Part shown: positions 21,151 to 60,285 of the stretch, one piece after another
Layout: each line of letters starts with the position of its first letter
How positions within the stretch are numbered: the stretch's first letter is position 1
Assembly (NCBI GenBank): GCA_977017645.1
Contig: OZ360222.1
Coordinates: 103,788,001-103,852,000, forward strand
DNA: 64,000 nucleotides
Direction: 5' to 3'
Origin: Torpedo marmorata
Lineage: Eukaryota
The notes under the pieces: generated by a model
Database searches by the model: none
What the model saw: the letters and a program-made list of their open reading frames with translations, nothing else
Told to the model about the DNA's origin: nothing
Translations under genes and position numbers: made by a program

Positions 21151-22761
21151 AGTGGTATGCAAACGTTTGGGCAACCCTGGTCAAAATTTCTGTTACTGTG
21201 AATAGTTAAGTGAGTAGAAGATGAACTGATCTCCAAAAGTCATAAAGTTAAAGATGACACATTCTTTTCAACATTTTAAGCAAGATGAGTGTATTATTTT
21301 TGTTTTGTACAATTTTAGAGTGAAAAAAAGGAAAGGAACACCATGCAAAGGTTTGGGCACCCCCAAGAGATTTGAGTTCTCAGATAACTTTTACCAAGGT
21401 CTCAGACCTTAATTAGCTTGTTAGGGCTTGTTCACAGTCATCGTTAGGAAAGGCCAGGTGATGCAAATTTCAAAGCTTTATAAATACCCTGACTCCTCAA
21501 ACCTTGTCCCAACAATCAGCAGCCATGGGCTCCTCAAAGCAGCTGCCTAGCACTCTGAAAATTAAACTAAATAATGCCCACAAAGCAGGATAAGGCTATA
21601 AGAAGATAACAAAGCATTTTCAGGTGGCCGTTTCCTCAGTTTGTAATGAAGAAATGGCAGTTAACAGGAACGGTGGAAGTCAAGTTGAGGCCTGGAAGAC
21701 CAAGAAAACTTTCCGAGAGAACTGCTCGTAGGATTGCTAGAAAGGCAAATCAAAACCCCTGTTTGACTGCAAAAGACCTTCTGGAAAATTTAGCAGACTC
21801 TGGAATGGTGGTGCACTGTTCTACTGTGAAGCGACACCTGCACAAATATGACCTTCATGGAAGAGTCATCAGAAGAAAACCTTTCCTGTGTCTTCACCAC
21901 AAAATTCAGCGTCAGAAGTATGCAAAGGAACATCTAAACAAGCCTGATGCATTTTGGAAACAAGTCCTGTGGACTGATGAAGTTAAAATAGAACTTTTTG
22001 GCAGCAATGAACAAAGGTATGTTTGGAGAAAAAAGGGTGCAGAATTTCATGAAAAGAACACCTCTCCAACTGTTAAGCACGGGGGTGGATCGATCATGCT
22101 TTGGGCTTGTGTTGCAGCCAGTGGCACGGGGAACATTTCACTGGTAGAGGGAAGAATGAATTCAATTAAATACCAGCAAATTCTGGAAGCAAACATCACA
22201 CTGTCTGTACAAAAGCTGAAGATGAAAAGAGGATGGCTTCTACAACAGGATAATGATCCGAAGCACACCTCAAAATCCACAATGGACTACCTCAAGAGGC
22301 ACAAGCTGAAGGTTTTGCCATGGCCCTCACAGACTCCCGACCTAAACATCATCGAAAATCTGTGGATAGACCTCATACGAGCAGTGCAAGCAAGACGGCC
22401 CAAGAATCAAATAGAACTAGAAGCCTTTTGAAAGAAAAATGGGTGAAAATTCCCCAAACAAGAATTGAAAGACTCTTAGCTGGTTACAGAAAGCGTTTAC
22501 AAGCTGTGATATTTGCCAAAGGAGGTGTTACTAAGCACTGACCATGCAGGGTGCCCAAACGTTTGCTTTGAACCCTTTTCCTTTTTTGTTATTTTGAAAC
22601 TGTAAAAGATGGAAATAAAAAAGTAATCTTGCTTAAAATATTAAGGAAATGTGTCATCTTTAACTTTATGCCTTTTGGAAATCAGGTCATCTTTTACTCG
22701 CTTAGCTATTCACAGTAACAGAAATTTTGACCAGGGGTGCCCAAACTTTTGCATACCACTG
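21151..22761 (+). mobile_element. Tc1 (DD34E) transposon with long IR/DR ends; transposase is a pseudogene
   Basis: About 200-bp inverted repeats (agtggtatgcaaa.. / ..gcataccactg); GRPRK, WTDE, QDND...34 aa...E; stop codon and frameshifts at both ends of the ORF. Confidence 0.93.
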
Positions 22762-33130: not shown

Positions 33131-33962
33131 AATCTGAAACTTGGCACAAACACAAGAGTTTGCATATTCACTGTTTGGAATCTTCTTGTGATTTTAATGT
33201 CTTAAATGTTAATAAAAAATAAAATAGATTATTAAAAATGTTTAACAGCTCTTGTTATCTATCAGCAGGAAACATCTGTTGAACTAGATGGTATCTGGTT
33301 GCTGCTTTCCAAGAAAGATGAAGGTAAGCAGCTATGATGCAGGAATATTTAATGGAAACATAAATGTTGAAAGATTCTTCCTGTAACAGTATGCTAGAAC
33401 TCCAAAGTACTAGAAATCAAATTAGTCTTGGCTCTGGCATTGAAATTTGGCAACTTGAGTGTCTTCATTTCTTGATCTATCTGCTAGATGGTGTCCATGT
33501 AACAACTAAATAAAACTGCAGTGAACTTGGTGCCCAAGACAGCATAGCTGTCAACCTACAAAAACAGCTGACAGCCTTATAAAATTGATAATTTAAAACA
33601 AATTCACAACTGAAAATAGAGACACAACTGAAAACATGCAACTATATAGAGCAAAGTAAGATGTCCCAAGGCACTTGGTTTATTTTAACAAATACAACTC
33701 TTCTACTTGGAGGACAAGAAGGATGTGTTTTCAGTACAGTCCTGTGAGTTCTGAAGTGACAGATAATAACAATGTAGCTTCTGTAACAGTGGAGACAGAG
33801 CTCGACTAGTTTGGAACCTTCTGCTTATCACATTAGGCTTTTGGGTACACTAATGCATGGACTCAATGATAGGTCTGTTACTGTTAGCTCTCTGACTTTT
33901 TTTATATATAAATATATATATATATATAAAAATATATATATATATATAAAAATATATATATA

Positions 33963-36058
33963 CCGTATATTTCGGCGTATAAGTCGACCGGCGGATAAGT
34001 CGACCCCCCTTTTTCAGCCTCATTTTAATGGTTTTATGGTATATCCGGCGTATAAGTCGACCCCCAAAAAACGCGATGCCTGAGATGTTGCGCATTGACC
34101 GGCGTATAAGTCGACCCTAAAAAAACGCGATGATTGAGCTGCTGGGCGTTGACCGGCGTATAGGTCGACCCTAAAAAAACGCGATGATTGAGCTGCTGGC
34201 CGTTGAATGACGTATAGATCGACCCACACCGATCGAGATCATTGAGCTGCTGGGCGTTGACTGGCGTATAGATCGACCCATAACGATCGCGATCATTGAG
34301 CTGCTGGGCGTTGACCGGCGTATAGGTCAACCCATAACGATCGCGATCATTGAGCTGCTGGGCGTTGACCGGCGTATAGGTCGACCCATAACGATCGCGA
34401 TCATTGAGATGCTGGGCGTTGGCTGGAGGTGATTGTTATCATGGAGGCTCCATTGAAGGCTCAATTGAAACGACGAAAGTATGAGGCGAGTTTTAAATTG
34501 AAAGTAATAGAAATGGCCAAGAAAACCAACAACTGTGCTGCTGCAAGAAAATTTGGTATATATGAGAAGTTGGTAAGAGATTGGAGGAAGAAAGAAGAGA
34601 CTTTAAGAAAAATACCAAAAAGGCAATGTTCCATGAGAAGAGGAATCACTCGTTGGCCAGAGTTGGAAAATCATGTAGCAGCATGGGTACGTGAACAGAG
34701 GCAAGATTGCTACATAGTCACCCGAAATAAAATAAGAACATTTGCACTGAACTGGGCAAAGTCGCACCCAGAACTCAGTAATGATTTTGAAGCTTCAGTA
34801 GGCTGGTGCAACCGTTTTATGAACAGGAAAAATCTGGTATTACGACAAAAAACTAAAATTGCTCAGAAACTACCAAAAGATCTTGATCATAAAGTTGTAA
34901 GTTTTCACCAGTTTATTTTACGTAACCGGAAGAAACACAAGTTTGCATTGGCAAATATTGGAAACATGGACGAAACCCCCATGAATTTTGACATGATAGG
35001 CAATAGAACAGTGGAATGGAAAGGTGTGAAAACTGTACAAACCAGGAGTACAGGACATGAAAGGACCAGGTTTACTGCGGTGTTATCGTGCATGGCCGAC
35101 GGGACAAAGTTAAGACCCATGGTAATCTTCAAGCGCAAACTTAAACCTAAGATAAATTTCCCAGCAGGTATTTTTGTACATTTTCATGAAAAAGGATGGA
35201 TGGATGAAAATGGTGTAAAACTATGGATAGACAATGTGTGGAACAGGCGGCCAGGCGGTTTACGCAAGGAACGGAGTTTGCTGGTCTGGGATATGTTTCG
35301 TAGCCACTTAATTGAGAAGACTAAAAGTACATTAGCACAACATAATACTCACATGGCGGTTATCCCGGGTGGTTTGACGTCTATATTACAACCTCTCGAT
35401 GTCTGCTTGAACAAGCCATTCAAAGACCACGTGCGTGAAGAGTGGAATACATGGATGTCGAGTGCAGAAAAATCATTTACAAAAGGCGGGGCAATGCGTG
35501 CTGCATCGCTTGATGTGCTGTGTGACTTCGTGCTCAAGGCATGGGACAAAGTGAAAGTAGAGACTGTAATAAAATCGTTTAAAAAGTGCGGTATCTCTTG
35601 TGCAATTGATGGTACGGAAGATGATTTATTGTGGGACTCTGACGACGAAGCTGAAGCCGCCTCATCAGATACAGACTGGGACCCGTACGATGACTGTTTA
35701 AACAGTGAGACCCCGGATGTGCTTGCCGAGATCTTTGCCTCAGACGATGATAGCGAAAGTGATTTTGAAGGGTTCTAAATGTCTTGTTGTTTTCAATTAA
35801 AATGTCAATGAAAATTTGTTGCAGTCGGGTTTTTTTTTGGTTTTTCAGGGGTCGACTTATACGCCGAATCGTGTTTTCAGGGGTCGACTTATACGCCGAA
35901 TCGTGTTTTCAGGGGTCGACTTATACGCCGGATCGGCGTGAACTCGATTTTGAGCTGAATTTAAGGTCTCAAAAGTATATCCGGCGTATAAGTCGACCCC
36001 CGTTTTTTGAGACATTTTTGAGGGTTTCAAGGGTCGACTTATACGCCGAAATATACGG
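33963..36058 (+). mobile_element. Intact pogo-superfamily (Passer-type, DD35D) DNA transposon
   Basis: 27-bp perfect TIR ccgtatatttcggcgtataagtcgacc; TA flanks; uninterrupted transposase ORF; arrays of subterminal repeats. Confidence 0.93.
34441..35778 (+). CDS. pogo/POGK-like transposase (Brinker-type HTH, CENP-B HTH, DDE_1)
   Basis: RRKYEASFKLKVI, ASVGWCNRFM, NMDETP, VWDMFRSH, QPLDV; 35 residues between D2 and D3; acidic tail; no stop codons. Confidence 0.93.
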   Translation: MEAPLKAQLKRRKYEASFKLKVIEMAKKTNNCAAARKFGIYEKLVRDWRKKEETLRKIPKRQCSMRRGITRWPELENHVAAWVREQRQDCYIVTRNKIRTFALNWAKSHPELSNDFEASVGWCNRFMNRKNLVLRQKTKIAQKLPKDLDHKVVSFHQFILRNRKKHKFALANIGNMDETPMNFDMIGNRTVEWKGVKTVQTRSTGHERTRFTAVLSCMADGTKLRPMVIFKRKLKPKINFPAGIFVHFHEKGWMDENGVKLWIDNVWNRRPGGLRKERSLLVWDMFRSHLIEKTKSTLAQHNTHMAVIPGGLTSILQPLDVCLNKPFKDHVREEWNTWMSSAEKSFTKGGAMRAASLDVLCDFVLKAWDKVKVETVIKSFKKCGISCAIDGTEDDLLWDSDDEAEAASSDTDWDPYDDCLNSETPDVLAEIFASDDDSESDFEGF

Positions 36059-36128
36059 TATATATAAAAAAAAATATATATATATAAAAATATATAAAAA
36101 TATATATATATATAAAAAAATATATATA

Positions 36129-36976
36129 CCGTATATTTCGGCGTATAAGTCGACCCTTGAAACCCTCAAAAATGTCTCAAAAAACGGGGGTCGACTTATA
36201 CGCCGGATATACTTTTGAGACCTTAAAATCAGCTCAAAATCGAGTTCACGCCGATTCGGCGTATAAGTCGACCCCTGAAAACACGATTCGGCATATAGGT
36301 CGACCCTGGAAGTGCCTCCCCACTGCCGGCGCCGCCGCTCCCCGACACCTCCCCACCGCCGGGCGCCGCCATAAACCACCCAGACATTCTACAATTGTAG
36401 AGCCCGAGGTCCCCGCTCCTACCCGGGAGAACGAGCTCCCCGCTCCTGCCTGGGAGAACGAGCTCCCCGCTCCTGCTCGGGAGAACGAGCTCCCCGCTAC
36501 TGCCTTGGAGAACGAGCTCCCCGCTCCTGCCCGGGAGAACGAGCTCCCCGCTCCTGCCTTGGAGAACGAGCTCCCCGCTCCTGCTCGGGAGAACGAGCTC
36601 CCCGCTATTGCCTTGGAGAACGAGCTCCCCGCTACTGCTCGGGAGAACGAGCTCCCCGCTCCTGCTCGGGAGAAAGACGTCGCCGCACCTGCATCTTCCC
36701 GGCCAGAAGCAAAGGTTTTTTTTACTGTTTTTTTTACTTACCGGTACTTGCTTAATTTACAGCTTTGTTACTTGGCGATTGGGATGTTGTAACAAATTTT
36801 GGGTTGTTGCTGGGAGGCCCAGACAGCCTGAAAATTGGGGGTCGACTTATACGCCGGTCAATGCGCAACATCTCAGGCATCCCGATTTTTGGGGTCGACT
36901 TATACGCCGGATATACCATAAAACCATTAAAATGAGGCTGAAAAAGGGGGGTCGACTTATACGCCGGTCGACTTAT
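36129..36976 (-). mobile_element. Non-autonomous derivative of the Passer element, inverted, running into the gap
   Basis: Carries the same right end (36129-36310) and left end (36837-36976) as 33963-36058, with an unrelated GC-rich interior. Confidence 0.9.
36405..36675. repeat. 27-bp minisatellite, about 10 copies
   Basis: Unit gagaacgagctccccgctcctgc(t/c)cgg. Confidence 0.9.
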
Positions 36977-38919: not shown

Positions 38920-39249
38920 CAGGGAGTCCCCGGGTTACGAACGTCCGACTTATGGACAACTCGTACTTACGAACAAATTGTGCCCCCAATTCGCGCATGT
39001 GCATAATGTTACCGCACGATGCAAGACATCGATGGAACCTGAGTAAGTGTTAACTTTTAATCATGATTTTTTTTCTATCTAAACTGTTTTAAGAACTGTT
39101 TCTTTAATGTTTTTTTGTTTTTTTTACAGTACTAAGACAAACATTTGACTGACGCTAAATAACCATATGTACCTGTTCCGACTTATCTACAAATTCGACT
39201 TAAAGACAGACGTAGGAACGGATCTCGTTCGTAACCTGGGGACTCCCTG
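38920..39249. mobile_element. Tigger-like MITE
   Basis: TIRs cagggagtccccgggttacgaac / gttcgtaacctggggactccctg; TA flanks. Confidence 0.88.
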
Positions 39250-40119
39250 TACTCAACTCCACCCTCACACTTATGTCCTCACCACACCCACCTTTGCTCT
39301 CCAGCCCTAAAAACAAAGTCCTTCCCCCTCCCTTCGGGGGAATGTTGTTGAGAAGCACTCCATCAGAACCAGGTTGGGCCAGGCTGATTGTGACAGCCTC
39401 ACTCGAGCACTCCTTACTACACACCTGCTCCCATCCCAAAAAGCATATCTGTGTTAATAAAATTAAGCAGAGCTAATAAAATTAATTTGACTGCATTGGA
39501 CTGGCGAGCCAAATCTTGGTCAAGGAGCATGTTTTGTGGAGAGTCTGAAACAAAAAGATGAGTGGTCTAGAAATGTAGAGCTAGTACTGTTGGATACTAT
39601 CCAATCTCGAAAATCTAGGATGCTGCTGATAGAATTGGAGGAATGCAGATATCACTCATCTAGATTAGGAGGAGAGACAGGGAGGCAAAAGATCACAGAG
39701 TAATTCACATGCTTGCAATTAAACGGAGTTTGATACGAATTACAAAGCACATAGGTAAGCTGAATAAGTGCAGTGGGTATAAGGCAAAAGGCTGGCCAGG
39801 ACACTTTTGTCTTGAATGTAAAGATACGAAAAGAATTGAAGCAGGAGCAAAATCAGGCACTGTTAACCAGGTGGAATCAGGCAATCTTGGTCTTGAAACG
39901 ACCAAGTGGTCAGATGCTCATCCCATGGTGAGGGTTTGACCTCAGACTGACAGGGTTAATATCAGGAGTAAGAATTTTTAGTGGAGACTGAAGACAACAA
40001 CTTTTGTTTTCAAAAAGCTGGATAAAAAATTCTGATCATCTGAAGCCTGACCATGGCCAAAACCACAAATCAACTAATCATTTAAATTTTATTGCATGGC
40101 CAGTTCTCGTTAAGATAAA

Positions 40120-58262: not shown

Positions 58263-60285
58263 CAGTGCCCTCCATAATGTTTTGGACAAAGACACTTTTT
58301 TTTCTTTATTTGCCCCTGTGCTCCACAGTTTTAAATTTGTAATCAAACAATTCATATGTAATTAAAGTGCATATTCCAGTTTATTCAAGGTTATTTGTAT
58401 ACATTTTGGTTTGACCATGTAGAAATTACAGCACTTTTTAGACATAATCCCCTCATTTCAGGACACCATAATGTTTGGGACATTTGGCTTCACAGCTGTT
58501 TGTGAGTACTCAGGTATGTTTAATTGCTTCATTGGTCCAGGTTTAAGAGAGTAAGGCTTGCTTCTAAGCTTTAAATCACCTTTGGGGTCTGTAGTTGCCA
58601 TTTTGTGCCAGTGAAAGTCAAAAAAGCCATTATGAGGCTGAAAAACAAGAATAAAACAGTAAGAGACATCGCCCAAACCTTAGGATTACCAAAATCAACT
58701 GTTTGGAACATCATGAAGAAGAAAGAGCATACTGGTGAGCTCAGTAATCGCAAAGGGCCTGGTATTCCAAAGAAGACGTCCACTGCAGGTGACAGAAGAA
58801 TTCTCATCATAATGAAGAAAAATCCCCAAACGTATGTCAGACAGATCAGAAACAATCTTCAGGAGGCAGGTGTGGATATGTCAATGACTACTGTCCGCAG
58901 AAGATTTCATGAACAGAAATACAGAGGCTACACGGCAAGATGTAATCTACGGCAAAGTTTGAATGCTTTGGATCTTGGGCAGTTCCTTTACGCCTCCACA
59001 CTTTGCTCTTGCCATCACTCTGATACAGGTTAATCTTGGTCTCATCTGTCCACAAGACCTTTTTCCAGAATTCTGCAGGCTCTTTTAAATACTTCTTGGC
59101 AAACTATAATGTGCCTATCCTTGCTGTGGCTAACTGGTGGTTTGCATCTTGCAGTGTAGCCTCTGTATTCAACAGTTTGGAACATCATTAGGAAGAAAGA
59201 GTGTACTGGTGAGCTCAGTAATCGCAAAGGGACTGGTATTCCAAGGAAGCCCTCCACTACTGATGACAGAAGAATTCTCATCATAATGAAGAAAAATCCC
59301 CAAATGTATGTCTGACAGATCAGAAACACTCTTCAGGAGGCAGGTGTGGATATGTCAATGACCACTGTCCACAGAAAACTTCATGAACAGAAATACAGAG
59401 GCTACACTGCAAGATGCAAACCACCAGTTAACCACAGCAAGGATTGGAAGATTATAGTTTTCCAAGAAGTATTTAAAAGAGCTTGCAGAATTCTGGAAAA
59501 AGGCCTTGTGGACAGATGAGACCAAGATTAACCTGTATCAGGGTGATGGCAAGAGCAAAGTGTGGAGGCGCAAAGGAACCGCCCAAATCCAAAGCATTCA
59601 ACCTTTGCTATGGTTTGCATCTTGCCGTGTAGCCTCTGTATGTCTGTTCATGAAATCTTCTGCGGACAGTAGTCATTGACATATCCACACCTGCCTCCTG
59701 AAGAGTGTTTCTGATCAGACATACGTTTGGGGAGTTTCACCTGCAGTGGAAGTCTTCTTTGGAATACCAGGCCCTTTGCGATTACTGAGTTCACCATTCC
59801 GTTCTTTCATCTTCATGATGTTCCAAAATGTTGATTTTGGTAATCCTAAGGTTTGGGTGATGTCTCTTACTGTTTTATTCTTGTTTTTCAGCCTCATAAT
59901 GGCTTCTTTGACTTTCATTGGCACAACTCTGGTCCTCATGTTGAAAAATGGCAACTCCAGACTTCAAAGGTGATCAAAAGCTTAGAAGCAAGCCTAGCTC
60001 TCTTATACTTGGACCAATGAAGCAAATAAACATACCTGAGTTCTCACAAACACCTGTGAAGCCAAATGTCCCAAACATTATGGTGTCTGAAATGAGGGAA
60101 CCATGTATAAAAAGTGCTGTAATTTCTACATGGTCAAACCAAAATGTATACAAATAACCTTGAATAAACTCTGGAATGTACACTTTAATTTCATGTGAAT
60201 TGTTTGATTACAAATTTAAAACTGTGGAGCACAGGGGCAAATAAAGAAAAAAAGTATCTTTGTCCCAAACATTATGGAGGCACTG
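58263..60285. mobile_element. Fold-back Tc1 built from two left halves
   Basis: TIR cagtgccctccataatgtt / aacattatggaggcactg; TA flanks; transposase N-terminus (RDIAQTLGLPKSTVW) on both strands. Confidence 0.9.

Follow-up and report, generated by a model that had tools for sequence, protein, structure and literature searches.

The element at positions 33963 to 36058 of the window (the whole 64,000-nucleotide stretch of Torpedo marmorata DNA analyzed here) is very probably an intact copy, inserted not long ago, of a very large Passer transposon family, one that is likely still mobile and that has likely supplied the enzyme for a family of MITEs. It is a true Passer element and a new one, notable for the scale and layered history of its family. 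No report of this family was found in the literature searched (mostly papers available without subscription). The features of the element and its immediate surroundings are as follows.

33903..33962, no strand: interrupted TA microsatellite; its final TA (33961-33962) is the left target-site duplication
33963-36058: Passer element, 2,096 bp, with TIRs and TA on both sides read from the sequence
33963..33989, + strand: left TIR, 27 bp, beginning with CCGTA and containing core motif 1
33989..34116, + strand: motifs 2-4 of the outer subterminal region, two of them exact and one with a single mismatch
34046..34421, + strand: 54-bp tandem array of 7 units, the inner units with degenerate cores, reaching the start codon
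34441..35778, + strand: transposase ORF, 445 aa
34445..34468, + strand: 12-bp in-frame duplication taking the protein from 441 to 445 aa; marker of the young subfamily
35842..35937, - strand: 32-bp tandem array of 3 units, with exact cores oriented toward the right end
35982..35998, + strand: inverted core motif of the right arm
36032..36058, - strand: right TIR, 27 bp
36059..36128, no strand: interrupted TA microsatellite separating the element from the MITE; contains the right TA duplication and forms the loop of a hairpin with 180-bp arms
36129..36976, - strand: MITE, a nonautonomous derivative of the Passer family, tail to tail with the element and entering the N block of the window
36311..36830, no strand: interior of the MITE, which has 61% GC, shows no relation to the transposase, and includes a minisatellite of 27-bp units at 36405-36692

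The two TIRs are exactly 27 bp long and free of mismatches, and each is abutted by a TA that lies within a TA microsatellite. The CpG observed/expected ratio was 1.17 within the element versus 0.40 in the remainder of the window. Among the 34 stop-to-stop frames of at least 150 aa in the 64-kb window, no second ATG-to-stop full-length TE protein was seen, and the six other long frames scanned by Pfam were RT, endonuclease, or Tc1 fragments. The original prediction of a 2.1-kb element with perfect TIRs, an unbroken 445-aa DD35D ORF, and preserved CpGs, surrounded by coding TEs that are all broken, was therefore borne out. Pfam also placed decayed Tc1-type transposase fragments at 21610-22431 and 58575-59033, and broken retrotransposon pieces are dense elsewhere in the window. 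A short element with inverted ends lies at 38920-39250; we take it to resemble a Tigger-type MITE.

Pfam analysis of the stop-free, 445-aa product of 34441-35778 revealed BrkDBD (residues 11 to 56), HTH_Tnp_Tc5 (residues 72 to 135), and DDE_1 (residues 210 to 380) domains, each above its curated cut-off. The catalytic triad is D177/D284/D320, and the 35-residue spacing between the last two (DD35D) is identical in 79 of 90 aligned homologues. An AlphaFold model (pLDDT 83) gave the catalytic domains of the Mos1, SETMAR, and Sleeping Beauty transposases as its best structural matches, and a sequence search of the PDB returned the CENP-B DNA-binding domain as the sole match. When a nuclear localization signal was looked for, a basic cluster, KRRK, was found at residues 10 to 13 by pattern match only. 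The protein is 63 to 66% identical to proteins of Latimeria, Pelodiscus, and Pleurodeles (65 to 66% for Latimeria and Pleurodeles), and the Pleurodeles protein cluster includes one member named POGK-like.

The assignment to Passer (PS) of the pogo superfamily is supported by the features that the element shares with it: DD35D, Brinker plus Tc5 HTH domains, a CCGTA TIR of less than 30 bp, and TA duplication (PMC7386202, PMC9976928). Passer elements are described as 1.6 to 4.0 kb long with a single ORF of 400 to 500 aa, compared with 2,096 bp and 445 aa here. By eye, the TIR of Latimeria PasserC agrees with 25 of the 27 bases of the element TIR, and PasserC also has an inverted subterminal copy. 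The supplement of PMC9976928 holds two skate rows, and the ends are CCGTA in the rows examined; the first 15 bases of the element TIR had no match within that supplement (first 400 characters of long cells). Subterminal repeats of half the TIR are visible in other Passer ends among its rows.

In order to determine the size of the family, the 6.2-Gb host genome was searched with a 24-mer from the ORF. This gave 8,750 exact matches, or 11,244 when as many as 2 mismatches were allowed (controls, 0), and exact TA-plus-TIR ends numbered 17,063 genome-wide. Fifteen of 70 position-sampled copies were intact (95% interval, 12.5 to 33%), which corresponds to about 1,900 intact copies (1,100 to 2,900), an estimate that favors younger copies since it was sampled from exact-match hits in the first 40 Mb of contig C1. 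Table 1 of PMC9976928, which covers species with at least 5 intact Passer copies, reaches maxima of 294 total and 83 intact copies; the present family, by comparison, has about 11,000 copies, of which an estimated 1,900 are intact.

The copies fall into layers of different age. The 70 first hits along contig C1 were 0.4 to 6% diverged from the young type, and 51 of them, 5 intact, were of an older 441-aa type. The 445-aa young subfamily, identified by the 12-bp duplication, had 2,515 exact genome hits, and 19 of 30 sampled copies were intact. Within the youngest clade (519 marker hits; about 0.2% diverged), 21 of 30 sampled copies were intact, a count that includes one old-type outlier (L242, with 39 differences). 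Copies of this clade had a median of 3 differences per 1,338 bp, one of them common to 23 of 30, and TA was present on both sides in 30 of 30; at the column of the clade marker, V213A, 75 of 90 homologues have V. The youngest clade also includes the window copy, which has three changes of its own (T291I, at a position variable across homologues; T400S; and one silent change); none of the 30 position-sampled youngest copies was identical to it. Seven of the best 30 hits were mutually identical; best-hit samples are biased toward near-identity, and age distributions were taken from position-sampled copies instead. Three copies (L222, L231, and L241) combine an old-type 5' end lacking the 12-bp duplication with a youngest-type ORF and 8 to 9 left motifs, and likely represent a recombinant sublineage that spread. 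The youth and multicopy status originally proposed are upheld by the near-exact hits and by the youngest clade, and divergence above 10% was not seen in the sampled copies. Homogenization by the assembly is not a good explanation, given that array lengths and private changes vary from copy to copy and that the same polymorphisms occur in organism A.

TA adjoined 230 of 235 ends, and position -5 was A in 88% (an ANNTA bias); of 55 sampled copies in which both ends were located, 52 had TA on each side. Four copies (L008, L017, L042, and L047) have one or two additional C residues between TA and TIR, which are either variant ends or homopolymer errors. Near-identical flanks were noted for independent insertions in the sets L006/L016/L021, L008/L024, and L007/L040, which suggests preferred TA sites inside other repeat families. 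Because the window locus has microsatellite flanks, it was set aside in the search for an empty site, and the evidence comes from a sister locus, L212. Here a contig that is single-copy in organism A aligns to the flank over 637 bases with 9 differences, the match ending exactly at the TA; past the TA, this contig continues for 162 letters distinct from the TIR and the element, a length that matches the right flank as far as the next repeat. From this one locus, we infer an orthologous empty site in organism A. The L212 insertion would then be younger than the 1.4% split, since it is absent from organism A, whose flank is 1.4% diverged; at that divergence, organism A is likely another species or a distant population. 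With an estimated two thousand intact copies, the family is likely still mobile and is a plausible gene-delivery tool.

Across the window there are 20 matches to the 17-bp core motif (up to 3 mismatches) versus 0.03 expected, and none of 100 shuffles reached 20; 13 of the matches are in the element and 7, further to those first reported, in the adjoining MITE (36139-36966). The left end has nine motifs, located in the TIR, at +16, at +57, and thereafter with a 54-bp period (TRF, 7.0 units). Only 3 of the 9 are exact, and the exact cores are limited to the outer four positions; the added 54-bp units have 1 to 4 core mismatches, with 4 in the ninth copy. The outer motifs 2-4 are retained in old copies, young copies, and the MITE. 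At the right end, all five motifs are exact: three at a 32-bp period, one inverted, and one in the TIR. The numbers, periods, and inverted copy agree with the arrays as originally described, except that the core is 17 rather than 18 bp.

The MITE, which the original prediction had missed, retains 155 bp of left-end and 178 bp of right-end sequence of the element, 97 to 98% identical and with 4 + 4 motifs. A 28-mer from its interior had 4,341 genome hits. The 19 best sister hits, without exception, corresponded to an 864-bp MITE with one shared difference, and 30 position-sampled copies measured 756 to 1,348 bp where both ends were located; the family includes a near-identical young wave. It is thus short, noncoding, high in copy number, and homogeneous, with the ends of an autonomous partner and TA duplication, as expected of a MITE. 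A chance ORF within it had zero Pfam matches. No candidate source of the interior was found by genome search (very common words skipped); it is GC-rich foreign sequence, possibly captured host DNA (Pack-TIR-like). The length of the 27-bp-unit minisatellite varies widely across copies L141-L170. At 35887-36300, the right ends of element and MITE form a hairpin around the TA microsatellite, with 180-bp arms 98% complementary; an Rfam search gave 11 matches, all far under the gathering score, which reflect this hairpin. Read-through across it could yield double-stranded RNA, and the outer left ends of element and MITE, which face each other, could mobilize the 3-kb pair as a unit. Another young element (L216; G000:C1:42881837 and 42884595) lies about 0.5 kb from a MITE, also tail to tail; local hopping might account for such clustering of element and MITE.

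The left array expanded with the young subfamily. Left motifs rose from a median of 5 in old copies (n = 47) to 8 in young copies (n = 19; p 2e-10), and the mode of left arm length was 262 bp in old copies versus 424 to 478 bp in young copies. The number of right-array units varied between copies with no age trend (p 0.18). Such an expansion, which is not predicted under a purely neutral reading, might be a selected gain, in which additional sites for transposase binding, or else a more powerful CpG-rich promoter, favored the young subfamily. The restriction of growth to the left array and its termination 20 bp upstream of the ATG are consistent with this, as is the cooperative binding of a pogo-family protein to subterminal repeats of half the TIR (PMC1636448). 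Against it, the cores of the added units are degenerate; MITEs with 3 to 4 left motifs spread alongside, including the near-identical young wave; the one subfamily with the expansion also has the 12-bp duplication and several amino acid changes, which confounds the comparison; and the stickleback Passer functions with TIRs from annealed oligonucleotides alone (PMC9976928). We consider a selected gain rather unlikely. The original proposal of arrays as amplified binding sites is weakened as regards mobility, because the MITE and old copies spread with 4 to 5 left motifs and the added units are degenerate. Since the MITE keeps four motifs per end and yet spread, an element can be moved without the long array. 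The position of the array next to the ATG leaves an influence on expression as its one other functional role, and, given its growth in the young subfamily, the array may act on expression or efficiency. The functional ends are likely the outer 155 bp on the left and 178 bp on the right, with four motifs each, and the additional units of 54 bp probably arose by slippage and rode along with the winning subfamily, unneeded for jumping and possibly acting on its promoter.

To assess selection among copies, non-CpG changes were counted in 64 near-full copies (6 incomplete copies of the 70 were dropped). Private changes numbered 302 N to 101 S (dN/dS 0.81), and changes present in 2 to 4 copies numbered 61 N to 19 S (dN/dS 0.87). 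Changes in at least 5 copies numbered 21 N to 26 S, a dN/dS of 0.22 (p 5e-5) that was robust to thresholds of 3 to 10, to the use of transversions alone, and to strict CpG exclusion. Conserved columns were hit by 1 of 21 shared replacements versus 72 of 280. In the four-gamete test, 457 of 1,031 site pairs were incompatible. Haplotypes appear mosaic across copies; the decay with distance is weak (p 0.07 to 0.09), so recurrent mutation may contribute and a tree of the copies is unreliable. Together, the low dN/dS of shared changes and the mosaics hint at long vertical persistence under selection. The pattern fits either vertical persistence, with functional copies seeding successive waves, or a reshuffling of old founder diversity. 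According to the latter, diverged founder variants entered the lineage and recombined, and evolution has been neutral since. Consistent with such a relic, the signal was significant in old copies (shared, 14 N to 18 S, versus 265 to 86; p 3e-4) and not within the young subfamily alone (13 N to 8 S versus 55 to 21; p 0.42), and alleles new to the young class numbered 7 N to 6 S. Moreover, some frameshift deletions are common to 2 to 3 copies, which, like the MITE, shows that defective copies spread in trans, and DNA transposons are reported to evolve neutrally within genomes, vertical persistence under selection not being the rule in vertebrates (PMC7070016). On the other hand, the young type differs from the old majority by a dS of about 4.8% and a dN of about 1.0%, roughly half the flank divergence of organism B, which fits constrained vertical descent, and two or three clean founder haplotype blocks are not evident. 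We regard the founder explanation as having slightly less than an even chance of being correct. More tentatively, the family might be a vertebrate cut-and-paste transposon that behaves like LINE-1, inherited vertically via several host speciations as successive recombining subfamilies, with purifying selection on the transposase within the host, and still active, with hundreds of near-identical source copies and a latest wave that prevailed by extending an array of its own binding motif on the promoter side.

The original prediction also entertained a recent horizontal acquisition. Sequencing runs labeled with 8 organisms contain 0.34 to 0.84 of the ORF words, and one run of organism D (X4) yielded a 1,194-nt contig with 19 differences from the element, lacking unique host flank. 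In addition, a sister Passer family (65% identity to the element) forms a 90% cluster (P0003) that spans a salamander (Pleurodeles), a rattlesnake (Crotalus), a turtle (Chrysemys), and a frog (Rhinoderma), from which it follows that the Passer clade moves between hosts. (This cluster contains several 450-aa salamander copies, yet PMC9976928 places Caudata among the groups without Passer.) A recent arrival is nevertheless improbable. Older layers, 2 to 6% diverged, reside in the same genome. When organisms A, B, D, and G were compared at a 9-kb locus, A, B, and G also carried host repeats, and unique flank pieces of B differed by about 6 to 9%; these organisms are therefore relatives, B and G having host repeats besides the family. 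Same-sample runs of similar assembly size were erratic, with word shares of 0.51/0/0 for organism C (element words in 1 of 3 runs of its sample) and 0.48/0.45/0 for organism D, whose runs of one sample showed either no trace or TIR pieces at depths of 17 and 376. The X4 contig has three alleles that are frequent in organism A and almost missing from B and G, as expected for trace host DNA, and the closest outside proteins show 75% and 70% identity. Trace contamination is the best explanation for the element in organisms C and D. Because older strata are resident, relatives carry the family, and the runs of nonrelatives resemble contamination, there is no support for a recent horizontal arrival. 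Instead of being a new import, the family most likely already resided in the lineage when related species split off; it may plausibly have come by horizontal transfer long ago, given that the sister family spans four tetrapod groups at 90%. Copy number rules out a domesticated, single-copy gene such as POGK, with whose transposase part the protein shares its domain order (PMC7386202): thousands of dispersed copies have TIRs and TA duplication, private mutations are neutral, and a close relative has an empty site.

It is also possible, although we think it unlikely, that the latest wave was a very recent burst of a family that is now silenced or dead, its intact copies being too young to have decayed. 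Most of the youngest copies carry 1 to 6 private changes, CpG transitions were seen among sampled copies, Passer exhibits overproduction inhibition (PMC9976928), and hundreds of source copies may invite host silencing. However, 5 of 30 youngest copies were identical to the commonest type, about 360 copies of the clade are estimated to be intact, and earlier layers were succeeded by new ones.

If the family is mobile, the Brinker and Tc5 HTH domains would bind the 17-bp core in the TIR and outer subterminal motifs, after which the ends would be paired. As in Tc1/mariner and pogo biochemistry, the RNase-H-like DD35D core would then excise the element and join it to TA, and copies would multiply when a sister, homologous, or ectopic copy serves as template for closing the gap left at the donor site. 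Repair of this kind would also account for the mosaic haplotypes, for arrays that slip in length, and for the foreign sequence inside the MITE. The binding step is proposed by analogy with Lemi1 of Arabidopsis, a pogo-family protein that binds subterminal repeats of the inner half of the TIR and that likewise has a MITE partner, Emigrant (PMC1636448). For Lemi1/Emigrant, binding was demonstrated by EMSA and footprinting at two extra motifs per end, whereas here the arrays are longer and binding is inferred.

Among other known systems, the Passer of Gasterosteus aculeatus, an active tool, is alike in architecture, and its left end has, by eye, dispersed repeats of the TIR core; its core differs, it has 16 copies, and its target is AAGTACTT versus ANNTA here (PMC9976928). 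Relative to published Passer elements, the regular, variable-length 54- and 32-bp tandem arrays and the large partner MITE set the present family apart. Pokey of Daphnia is a DNA transposon that persists vertically with MITE or other nonautonomous partners and whose 5' repeats also vary, but it is a low-copy piggyBac sheltered in rDNA (PMC4912750). The Helibat Helitrons of bats also persist vertically with nonautonomous partners, but by rolling-circle replication, and such persistence has been described as a contrast to animal cut-and-paste elements (PMC4224331).

Gene-transfer tools are built from naturally active vertebrate DNA transposons, of which there are few. The present family offers hundreds of natural intact variants and, in the MITE, a natural minimal-end vector, and it comes from a lineage in which Passer has hardly been sampled. 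The size and layered history of the family also make the vertical persistence of cut-and-paste elements under selection testable within a single genome.
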